Of a stretch of 64,000 nt of DNA, positions 21,601-24,600 are shown one piece after another; within the stretch, counting starts at the first letter, position 1, and each line of letters opens with the position of its first letter. The notes under the pieces were generated by a model, which saw only the letters and a list, made by a program, of their open reading frames with translations, did not search any database and was not told where the DNA came from. The stretch comes from Negaprion brevirostris (lineage: Eukaryota): assembly GCA_030324005.1 (NCBI GenBank), contig JARDVH010000073.1, forward strand, positions 41,085,677-41,149,676. The letters are read 5' to 3'. The position numbers and the translations under genes are program-made.

Positions 21601-24600
21601 GATATGGGGGTAATACATTAGCATGGATTGAGAATTGTTTAGCAGCCCAGAAACAGTAGGAATAAATGGGTCTTTTTCAAAGTAGCAGATTGTATCTAAT
21701 GGGGTCCCATGGGCGGTAATGCTTGGGCCCCAGCTATTCACAATATATGTTAATGATTTGGATGAGGGAACCAAATGTAATATTTCCAAGTTTGCTGATG
21801 AATTTTGGTGTGATGAGGAGGACGTTCAGAATCTTTAAGGCAATTTAGACAAGTCAAGCAAGTGGGCAAATACATGATATATGCAGTATAATGCAGATAA
21901 ATGTGAAGTCATCTACTTCGAATGGAAAAACAAAACGCTAGAGTATTATTTAAATGATTATAGAGTGGAAAATGTTGACAATGTATAATGGGACCCTGGG
22001 TGCCCTAATACATCAATCACTGAAAGCAAACATGCAGGTATAACAAGCAGTTAGGAAGGCAAATGGTATGTTGGCCTTCATTCCAAGAGGATTTGAGTAT
22101 AGAAGCAAGGACGTCTTACTGTATTTGTACAAGGCCTTGGTGATACCACACCTGGAGTATCATGTGCAATTTTAGTCTGCTTATGCAACAAAGGATATAC
22201 TTGCCAAAGAGGGAGTGCAGTGTAGGTTTACTAGACTGATTCCTGGAATGACAGGATTTTCGTATGAGGAGAGATTGGGAAGGCTAGGCCTGTAATTGCT
22301 GGAATTTAGAAGAATTAGAGGGAATATAATTGAAACATACAAAATTTTGACAGGGCTAGACAGACTGGATGCAGGAACGTTGCTCCCTCAGGCAGTCAGA
22401 GATGGGAGCGGGGTGGTCTAGGACAAATGGTCATTGTATCCAGGTACGGATGGGGTAGGCCATTTAGGGCTGAAATGAGAAGAAACTTCTTCACTTGGAG
22501 AGTGATGAACCTGTGAAATTCTCTACTATAGTCGGGGAAGCCAAATGACTATATTTAAGAAGAAAATATTTCTAGACTCTAAAGGCATCAAGGGATATGG
22601 GGAGAGTGCAGGGGCGTAGCACTGACATATAGCAGCAATCATAATCATTTTTAAATGCTGGAGCTGGCTCAAAGGGGGGAATGGCCTAATCCTGTTCCTA
22701 TTTCTATGGATTATGTTTATAATGTTCATTGAGTATATGGCTAGATAGATTTTTTTCTATAGGAAAGATGACAACATAATTGAAGTTTCCCAGATCCGGA
22801 CCAATTGGTAACAAAAAGCACATTGTAGACAGTTTGTGAGACAGTCTCTGGCATTTGACATCAATTGTGTGCACTGCTATTTTGTCAATGTAACACAGAC
22901 AGATTTTTATTACTTACAAGTGGAATATCATTTTACTGCTAAATGGAAGATACAGCAGTTTGACCAGTACCAGCTATTTATCTAGCTAGCGTTGCTTGGA
23001 AATCAAAAAACTGGAAACTGCCACAAACCTGCTGACAACTCCAATGATACCCAATTTGACTGGAATAACTCTTCCCATAAGCACATCCATAGCATCAGTG
23101 CCAGCATCCATAAGGTCCAATTTTGTGATAACAGCAAGTGTTCGCCGCCCTGTAGATCAGACACATCACTACTAACTCAGGTGGATTATTTAAGAGAATG
23201 CAACTCAATTTCAATGCAGAGTATAACACACACACTAATTAAAATTCCTTTCTTCCTTCTGCCTAACTGCTCCATCTGATGGTTTCATGTTTACATCTAT
23301 TCATGGTATTGGTAAAGCCTGCATTAGGCTTTTCAGAACATTTTTCAAGAGACATGGTAGGAAGTTTAACAATGCAGGAAAAGAAACTCCTTTGTTTTGA
23401 ATCTCAGCTAAGACTGGTGCAAATTGCTTCTCAGGAGATGACCTGCTTTGATGCCTCTATCTGTGTTACTCAAACTTAGAAATTATTGGCTATAATCTTG
23501 CCAAAGGAAGCCTAATAGTGATCAACAGCGGATCTGTAGATTTAAACTCAAGAAGCTATAATTGGAAATCTAATGCTCTGGAGTTTCACTACTGGATAAT
23601 TTCCATGACCATCTTACCTTCTGGATCAGCTTCTCTGGCAATTTTGAGTGACTCCGAGGTTGCCATGTCTGTATTGGCAGCAGTGACAGACAAGATGATT
23701 GAGTTTGGGTTGCTGATGTATCGCAGTATCAGGTCTTTTATCTGCACTTCTATGTCTCGAGGTTGGTCACCCACTGGTACCTGAACAGAGAATGCTAATG
23801 ATAAGTATTAAAATCACTGCAAATGCCAGCCACTGATTCTTTTTCAACAAAAGAGTATTTGTCAATGGATTGAGTTCCAGTTGGAGGGCTTGTAGAGTTT
23901 AAATTATGTTTGAAATTTGATTTAAGCGTTCTTATTATAAAAGTAGCTTTCTTTCTACAGAAGCTTTAAATTACTAAAACTATGGTCAATTCAAATGGTG
24001 AAACCTATAATTGACAACCAGATCTAGAAGCGCAGAACAAACAAAACTTTAACCCAAAACATGCATAAAATCAACATTATACTGGCTTTCAGGAACTATC
24101 TAATTTACACCAACATTCTGAATACTAAATTCTGAATTGACAGCTACATTGTTATGGAAAATAAAACTAATTTGAAGTAACCTGTCACATCTGTGTCACA
24201 ATGGATTAAAAATCATTGAGCTAGAAGTAAAATGTGACAAAGTGGTAATGCTGTGCACAAAACAAACAAATGCAGTATAAAATTGGCTGGTAGAATGCAA
24301 TTCTTTGTTTTGTGACCAAGATTCTTTCAGATTCGAGTTCCCTAGGATATCCATGGCAATGATGTGGAGATGCCGGCATTGGATTGGAGTAAACATAGTA
24401 AGAAGTCTCACAATACCAGGTTAAAGTCCAGCAGGTTTATTTGGTAGCACAAGCCAGTGTGTCTAAGTTTGTGTCTTCATATGCCTTGTTTGTGAACAGA
24501 ACTCCCACTCACCTGATGAAGGAACAGCGCTCTGAAAGCTTGTGGCATGTGCTACCAAATAAACCTGTTGCACTTTAACATGGTGTTGTGAAACTTGTTA

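Follow-up and report, generated by a model that had tools for sequence, protein, structure and literature searches.

The 64,000-nucleotide stretch of Negaprion brevirostris DNA analyzed here (contig JARDVH010000073.1, positions 41,085,677 to 41,149,676; hereafter the window, numbered from its first letter) carries DNM1L on its minus strand, with the start codon at 45711 and exons down to about 547, as located by a motif scan of the six-frame translations of the window. Repeats in this region are truncated head-to-head insertions of a Penelope-like element, four of them in introns and one inverted copy (47386-47463) outside the gene. We show herein that the junctions between opposed arms of this shark family cluster at the two edges of its hammerhead ribozyme motif, one near the predicted start of the RNA and the other near the predicted cut. 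Among 74 strand-switch contigs listed from four related genomes, the upstream end of the joint fell at 24505-24509 in 67, and the downstream end fell at or just past the cut (24548-24557) in 72. The clustering is likely real and is resolved only to about 10 nucleotides (nt); the pattern is a real, testable hint of cleavage, not proof of it. The leading explanation of the near-cut ends is that a second template RNA was cut by the ribozyme and that reverse transcription ran off at the cut, a reading to which we give slightly less than an even chance.

The hammerhead and the putative start signals upstream of it were placed as follows.

24509 to 24545, plus strand: predicted minimal type I hammerhead; stem I is 24509-24512 with 24542-24545, the core is 24513-24519, and there is an extra A.
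The same hammerhead, continued, plus strand: predicted stem II at 24521-24533, GAAA at 24534-24537, and a palindromic stem III.
24476 to 24483, plus strand: decayed TATA-like box, 37 nt before the core.
24504 to 24509, plus strand: initiator-like motif with a predicted +1 at 24507, coinciding with the hotspot of 5' ends at 24505-24509.

The motif that the initial annotation had named as the cleavage site, GAAAGCTT/GTG, was located at 24534-24544, with the predicted cut at 24541/24542 (register 1). A relaxed hammerhead scan of both strands recovered three cores of the family, all on the plus strand (16131, 24513 and 40728); the minus strand gave one unrelated weak match. The CUGANGA/GAAA core with its NUH triplet is complete in 24513 and 16131 and is conserved in L002, a distant relative from a metagenome, in which the sequences of stems I and II differ yet pair (read by eye from four sequences). 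Both core halves together with a recognisable stem II occur only in 24513, stem II being broken in 16131 and the core of 40728 having a 3-nt deletion that removes A9.

A block of 7 nt at 24542-24548 is a feature of the family, being skipped in about 3.5% of depth, and for that reason this near-duplication was rejected as a footprint of the junctions. The subfamily that lacks the block gave 313-498 loose ends at 24544, and the cut of this short variant maps to 24548/24549 when right-aligned. In the long variant, 72% of X1 depth has T at 24547, and this majority letter would let 24537-24539 pair with 24545-24547. With the block, a minimal hammerhead that otherwise works only as a dimer may become able to fold as a monomer; its stem III would have 3 base pairs (bp), and its cut would shift by 7 nt in the 3' direction, to 24548/24549 (register 2). 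A 5-bp hairpin at 24542-24555 is also predicted in the long variant, as is a long-range helix between 24506-24513 and 24582-24590. Equivalent helices are predicted for 16123-16129 and 40720-40728, i.e. in all three core-bearing arms; they join the 5' strand of stem I to the 3' end of the pseudo-long terminal repeat (pseudo-LTR), just inside the start of tail-less reverse transcription. The predicted fold of L002 favours stem I over such a helix. If formed, the helix could keep the ribozyme off until the 3' end of the pseudo-LTR has been copied.

Junctions were collected from Logan contigs of 4 of 24 listed runs (X1, X3, X4 and X10, representing four organisms), aligned at 80% likeness to the single-orientation stretch 24456-24635; between 15,477 and 29,676 contigs aligned per run. 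Fifteen of 17 joint rows were listed and 14 of these are strand switches, which together hold the 74 contigs (16 in X1, 25 in X3, 16 in X4 and 17 in X10). The design registers junctions within these 180 nt, and its counts apply to that interval and not to all inversions. Downstream ends lay at 24548-24551 in 53 contigs, at 24555-24557 in 19, and at 24540 and 24565 in one each, and the listed joints comprise at least eight different offsets. A threefold rise in depth after 24550 was not used; it is summed contig depth, confounded by subfamilies and by letters private to the reference. In several filler-bearing joints the sequence jumps back to 24505-24507 or 24489 after about 24537-24544; such joints, if both sides are on one strand, would be short head-to-tail hammerhead repeats.

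The start-site hotspot, to which the initial annotation had not pointed, is the stronger of the two. It occupies the 5' edge of stem I, where the predicted +1 sits 29-31 nt after the TATA-like box, and it is best read as run-off at what would be the first base of the RNA. The box lies 37-39 nt and the initiator 6-8 nt before the core in the shark arms, including the minus arm of the 39703 copy, and in L002. Rotifer pseudo-LTRs likewise have a TATA box with an initiator-like TCACT (PMC3846280; here and below, statements on cited papers refer to the portions of their text that were available). Loose 5' ends among the best six per run were at 24466, which is a homology edge, and at 24505, 24506 and 24509; the last three numbered 130-226 per run where listed, with low agreement and long flanks. 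A subfamily alignment edge accounts for part of the pile at 24505-24506; joint ends at 24507-24509 are off any alignment barrier. A splice acceptor before stem I, as in Drosophila virilis, whose promoter is treated in PMC2377424, was considered and rejected: the AG at 24498-24499 is missing from the arms of the 39703 copy.

BLAST and alignment identified six copies in the window, five of which are inverted head to head. The two that are joined at the predicted cut are the following.

24359 to 24457, minus strand: tail-bearing arm of the 24360 copy, with the tail at about 24359-24396 and the 3' part of the pseudo-LTR; sense to DNM1L.
24464 to 24605, plus strand: tail-less arm of the 24360 copy with the whole hammerhead, starting about 50 nt before the core.
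24347 to 24358, plus strand: left target-site duplication of the 24360 copy, 11/12 identical to 24606-24617.
24606 to 24617, plus strand: right target-site duplication of the 24360 copy.
16028 to 16119, minus strand: tail-bearing arm of the 16029 copy, starting at the cut (0 to -2).
16118 to 16209, plus strand: tail-less arm of the 16029 copy, a short variant without the 7-nt block, with its core at 16131 and its cut at 16159/16160.

The minus arm of the 24360 copy starts at 24457, the equivalent of 24543, or 1 nt past the register-1 cut, in agreement with the initial annotation, which had put it within 1 nt; its junction contains about 7 nt of filler (24458-24464) and no homology. The minus arm of the 16029 copy, likewise said to begin at the cut, does so to within 2 nt, the two letters AA being common to the starts of both arms; its plus arm starts about 12 nt before the core and about 6 nt before the predicted +1. 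The remaining inverted copies are joined elsewhere, and the sixth copy is a plain fragment.

39703 to 39873, minus strand: tail-bearing arm of the 39703 copy, which has lost its hammerhead and AATAAA through an internal deletion (about 39775-39778).
39874 to 40801, plus strand: tail-less arm of the 39703 copy, with the end of the open reading frame (ORF; endonuclease), the 3' untranslated region, a damaged core at 40728 and a cut at 40753/40754.
39690 to 39702 and 40802 to 40814: target-site duplication of the 39703 copy, 13 nt.
17301 to 17725, minus strand: minus arm of the 17301 copy, its outer 3' end about 18 nt short of the core.
17756 to 18154, plus strand: plus arm of the 17301 copy, running into an N gap (18155-19109) just before the core.
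47386 to 47463: fifth inverted copy (47385), 1.7 kb upstream of the DNM1L start codon, with a core in neither arm.
34349 to 34411, plus strand: plain tail-less fragment without a core, starting 2-4 nt past the cut.

Across these copies, 3 of 11 arm 5' ends and two of the five inversions (16029 and 24360) lie within 4 nt of the predicted cut. The claim that inversion junctions coincide with the cut therefore holds for two of the four copies for which it was made and fails for the other two, as it does for the 47385 copy, which the initial annotation had overlooked along with the plain fragment at 34349-34411. The minus arm of the 39703 copy indeed has no core; the position near 39775 taken for its junction is an internal deletion, bounded by two CCTG words in the sense arm, that cleanly removes the whole hammerhead and could be a template jump or a later repair. 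The arms in fact switch strand near 39874, some 120 nt upstream of the cut. Similarly, the minus arm of the 17301 copy does stop before the core, at its outer 3' end and not at an inversion junction, which lies inside the endonuclease coding region (17725/17756). This near-symmetrical inversion, with a 30-nt spacer (17666-17815), gives an imperfect palindrome of about 850 nt. Joining at the hammerhead edges thus appears to be one frequent route and not the rule, three of the five inverted window copies being joined elsewhere.

Both arms lie within one target-site duplication, the arms overlap in sequence, and the two hammerhead edges are where junction ends concentrate. Each insertion would be a single event, in which two complementary DNAs (cDNAs), likely primed separately, are joined head to head. 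The TATA box and the initiator would start the RNA at about 24507, making stem I its first nucleotides. Copying of an uncut RNA would then run off at the cap and give the arm whose core is intact, and copying of a second, cut RNA would run off at the cut and give the other arm. Blunt joining, or joining through 1-3 nt of homology, would link the 3' ends of the two cDNAs. Such a scheme predicts a tailed arm that ends at the cut and a partner arm that reads through an intact core. The cut-arms of the window are tailed and the core arm is tail-less, a combination that a simple fold-back of one cDNA would not produce. In L1 twin priming, two primings on opposite target strands and a join through short homology give an inverted insertion within one target-site duplication. 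There the arms abut, whereas the shark arms overlap by 55 to 400 nt, so that two RNA templates or strand displacement would be needed. The fuller picture is put forward tentatively, and we regard it as possible, not probable: a dimeric retrotransposition complex would make the inverted insertions from a pair of RNA templates, one capped and intact and one cut by its hammerhead, copying of the pseudo-LTR 3' end may free stem I from the 24506-24513/24582-24590 helix and in this way activate the ribozyme, and the junctions would be a fossil record of germ-line cleavage during transposition.

The closest experimental system is the Poseidon element of the lizard Anolis carolinensis (PAc), in which reverse transcription from two internal sites gives tailed and tail-less ends and both target strands are extended; its protein is predicted to dimerise, and its hammerhead cuts only with protein present (PMC11167929). 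The shark family resembles PAc in its tailed and tail-less ends and in having the hammerhead shortly upstream of the reverse-transcription starts, and differs in that its junctions point tentatively to copying of cut RNA in vivo. Endonuclease-bearing elements of the Penelope/Poseidon type have an inverted 5'-truncated partner, pseudo-LTRs and an optional tail of 30-40 bp (PMC8557442, PMC3846280). The shark family is alike in its head-to-head arms within one target-site duplication of 7-13 bp, its tail on one arm only, its C-terminal GIY-YIG-like endonuclease, its pseudo-LTR with TATA and initiator-like TCACT, and its microhomology deletions. It departs from the available portions of these accounts in that junction ends lie at the hammerhead edges in 67/74 listed joints. 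Metazoan Penelope-like minimal hammerheads (PMC4209133) are, as in the shark, of type I, with a short stem I, an extra base (A9/G10.1), a palindromic minimal stem III, and motifs close together on opposite strands. The long shark variant is unlike them in its possible 3-bp monomeric stem III, predicted to move the cut 7 nt further 3'; the window copies are all decayed. Inverted partners, tails and pseudo-LTR hammerheads are thus standard for Penelope-like elements; our literature search, whose coverage excluded most subscription papers, returned no report of junctions clustering at the hammerhead. What hammerheads do in such elements has been called unclear (PMC8557442), and PAc, the one reconstituted element, does not need cleavage in vitro (PMC11167929). 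Junctions that pair the RNA start with the cut site in a high-copy family would provide a cheap, base-level genomic test of cleavage in vivo and of the origin of inverted arms. If the two-RNA reading is true, the ribozyme would be shown to cleave in the germ line during transposition. If the junctions follow stem I pairing instead, a long-known and unexplained insertion shape would still be accounted for.

A number of observations weigh against cleavage run-off. Core mutants of PAc insert normally in vitro, and in the available text on that element no RNA-seq reads start at the cut (PMC11167929). ViennaRNA predicts a hammerhead fold for none of the window copies. Only two of the five inverted window copies fit a junction at the cut, and the 47386-47463 copy is a counter-example, a tail-less minus arm (47386-47433) being joined via 3 nt of microhomology to a tail-only plus arm, so that a point 11 nt past the cut meets the tail. 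Among the listed joints, 1/74 lies near the register-1 cut (24542), which apart from this is represented by the 24360 copy, though the long variant dominates depth. The best six loose ends of each run (781 further rows) include no 5' end at the cut, and starts at the cut are therefore not a leading class of simple truncations. Where 2 nt of homology are expected from the reference, the tabulated overlap between the two sides of a joint is mostly 0, which makes single-base reading of the joints unsafe, and the four related species have loci in common, so that their contigs are not independent. Random junctions simulated from three window donors with three proxy aligners, which stand in for the actual contig aligner, pile up at 24548, 24550 and 24555, where letters private to the reference and the 7-nt indel lie. 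When a decayed short donor is used and the other end is set to 24506, the two near-cut windows collect as many as 71% of the random ends; at that expectation, the probability of 16/16 is up to 4e-3 and that of 8/8 (X1 halved for alleles) up to 0.066. Up to 27 of the 74 listed contigs may also be in a stem I register, seven in that of a 3-nt CAC and 20 at 24555-24557 or equivalent offsets.

These last contigs bear on the view that no cleavage took place, which we rank close behind run-off at the cut and consider quite possible. The start-arm's complement of the stem I 5' strand would pair with the other cDNA, or fold back, at the stem I 3' strand, or the reverse transcriptase would stall at the folded hammerhead or at the hairpin predicted at 24542-24555. 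Since the geometry of a hammerhead makes the stem I 3' strand begin at the cut, pairing or stalling predicts the same place, and 67/74 listed joints do link the 5' edge of stem I with its 3' region, where complementarities of 3 nt (CAC) and 4 nt (CCAC) are available. Self-priming has been proposed for inverted junctions (PMC3846280), and a join without cleavage also agrees with the dispensability of cleavage in PAc in vitro and with the lack of cut-site starts among the leading loose ends. Against it, the full stem I registers are not the commonest class: 41/74 listed contigs lie 2-4 nt off the CAC register, none falls into the long variant's CCAC register, and in six of the seven listed contigs (5 rows) whose partner end is away from stem I the other end is still near the cut. 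Nor does fold-back yield a tailed cut-arm together with a tail-less core arm, and the 24360 junction has filler in place of homology. Stem I homology is unused in both window junctions at the cut, and other homologies of 2-3 nt at 24567-24570 are unused among the listed joints.

It is unlikely, in our judgment, that the clustering is mostly a product of measurement and ancestry, with barriers in a single decayed reference, near-perfect palindromes lost from genomes or assemblies, and a small number of old loci entering the count once for each of four species. Besides the simulated pile-up, this would fit the small number of listed joint contigs (16-25 per run out of the thousands aligned), the fact that each listed joint row has a side of at least 31 in some run, which suggests a filter, and the 40-45% of 31-mers that are common to species. 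Under a uniform null, each joint falls at 24548-24551 with p=0.068, a value that ignores alignment edges, and 12-45% of simulated random ends fall in the two near-cut windows. However, the simulation places 20-55% of ends at or beyond 24558, against 1/74 observed among the listed joints, and hits both hotspots at once in at most 19%, against 67/74; the predicted barriers at 24565 and 24572 hold 1/74 listed contigs. The variety of offsets, the barrier-free ends at 24507-24509, and the two window copies, read directly, that show the same place also speak for more than an artifact. Alignment pile-up thus inflates the clustering without fully explaining it. As for the claim that ribozyme cleavage made the 5' end of the reverse-transcribed RNA, the near-cut clustering beyond simulation upholds it in part; the resolution of about 10 nt, and the pairing or stalling that predicts the same place, leave it short of established. 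A further idea, that sense-strand hammerheads are selected against in the DNM1L introns and that only insertions with a core-less sense arm persist, strikes us as improbable. DNM1L being on the minus strand, plus-strand cores are antisense to it, and as the initial annotation had stated, all recognisable cores of the family (3/3) are antisense, only one of them being intact. The core is missing from 4/4 sense arms, in two through events other than the junction, and is present in 3/4 antisense arms. Retrozymes are under-represented in Xenopus introns according to a 2026 preprint (10.64898/2026.07.22.740005), whose available text yielded no strand analysis and does not contain the word 'antisense'. 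These counts amount to p=0.125 for 3/3, 0.0625 for 4/4 with the core of a second family included, and 0.071 by Fisher's test for core-bearing arms (0/4 against 3/4), and one core is hidden in an assembly gap (17301 plus arm). Lone minimal hammerheads gave no cleavage and dimers were cleaved weakly (PMC4209133), introns cut by a hammerhead still splice (account in PMC2995048), and AATAAA is kept in two sense arms, which means that the intron tolerates sense-strand signals. Purging is accordingly unsupported, chance most likely accounts for the antisense placement of the cores, and the host-gene angle adds nothing at present.

The additional core counted above lies outside the family.

38973 to 39003, plus strand: decayed hammerhead-like core, apparently of a second repeat family, to which we presumptively assign it; antisense to DNM1L.

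A pseudo-LTR-like fragment of that second family (38973-39070) begins right at its hammerhead core.

The family is a high-copy Penelope-like element with a GIY-YIG-type endonuclease end, a pseudo-LTR with a minimal hammerhead, a tail and target-site duplications. Of 53 candidates compared with the ORF end of the 39703 copy (40186-40515), 27 are relatives, the best being shark-named and 72-76% identical. It is 46% identical to P0024, which has a Pfam GIY-YIG domain (E 8e-7); a direct Pfam scan of the decayed 40186-40515 piece itself gave no GIY-YIG match. The reverse transcriptase region is absent from the truncated window copies and is present in longer relatives of the ORF end, including P0009 and P0016, which have RVT_1 and a C-terminal part matching 39853-40533. 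Downstream of the ORF come the pseudo-LTR, which holds the minimal type I hammerhead, and a tail of about 35 nt that is optional, being found on one arm only in the 16029, 24360, 39703 and 47385 copies; loose ends at 24604 run into the tail in all four related-genome runs. An inverted partner lies inside one target-site duplication in the 24360 (12 nt), 39703 (13 nt) and 47385 (about 7 nt) copies, while the duplication is weak for the 16029 copy and not visible for the 17301 copy. Status as an animal non-LTR retrozyme was rejected: the window copies are single or head to head, with no tandem head-to-tail hammerhead units.

Outside sharks, the pattern of the family had no match in viral contigs or in metagenome contigs and one, presumably by chance, in bacterial genomes (L001). 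A protein-guided metagenome scan retained one locus from 223 candidates, L002, a distant Penelope-like element with 55% protein identity to the shark family and no visible inverted arm; its TATA, initiator, hammerhead and downstream pseudo-LTR (940-1100) follow the shark layout. At gathering thresholds, an Rfam scan of the window returned no hammerhead, and its single match was a transfer RNA at 27948-28007 (plus strand, 50.6 bits) in a DNM1L intron. In the sense-strand arms 16028-16119 and 24359-24457, a GT-rich stretch comes after AATAAA, and the two may form a cryptic polyadenylation signal in DNM1L introns. Several annotated isoforms of shark host genes (P0004, P0014, P0020, P0023 and P0025-P0027) include a piece of this endonuclease, likely as exonised copies or gene-model errors. 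Finally, as a further difference from PAc, the shark reading frame that opens at the ATG in the core closes within the pseudo-LTR, as read by eye.

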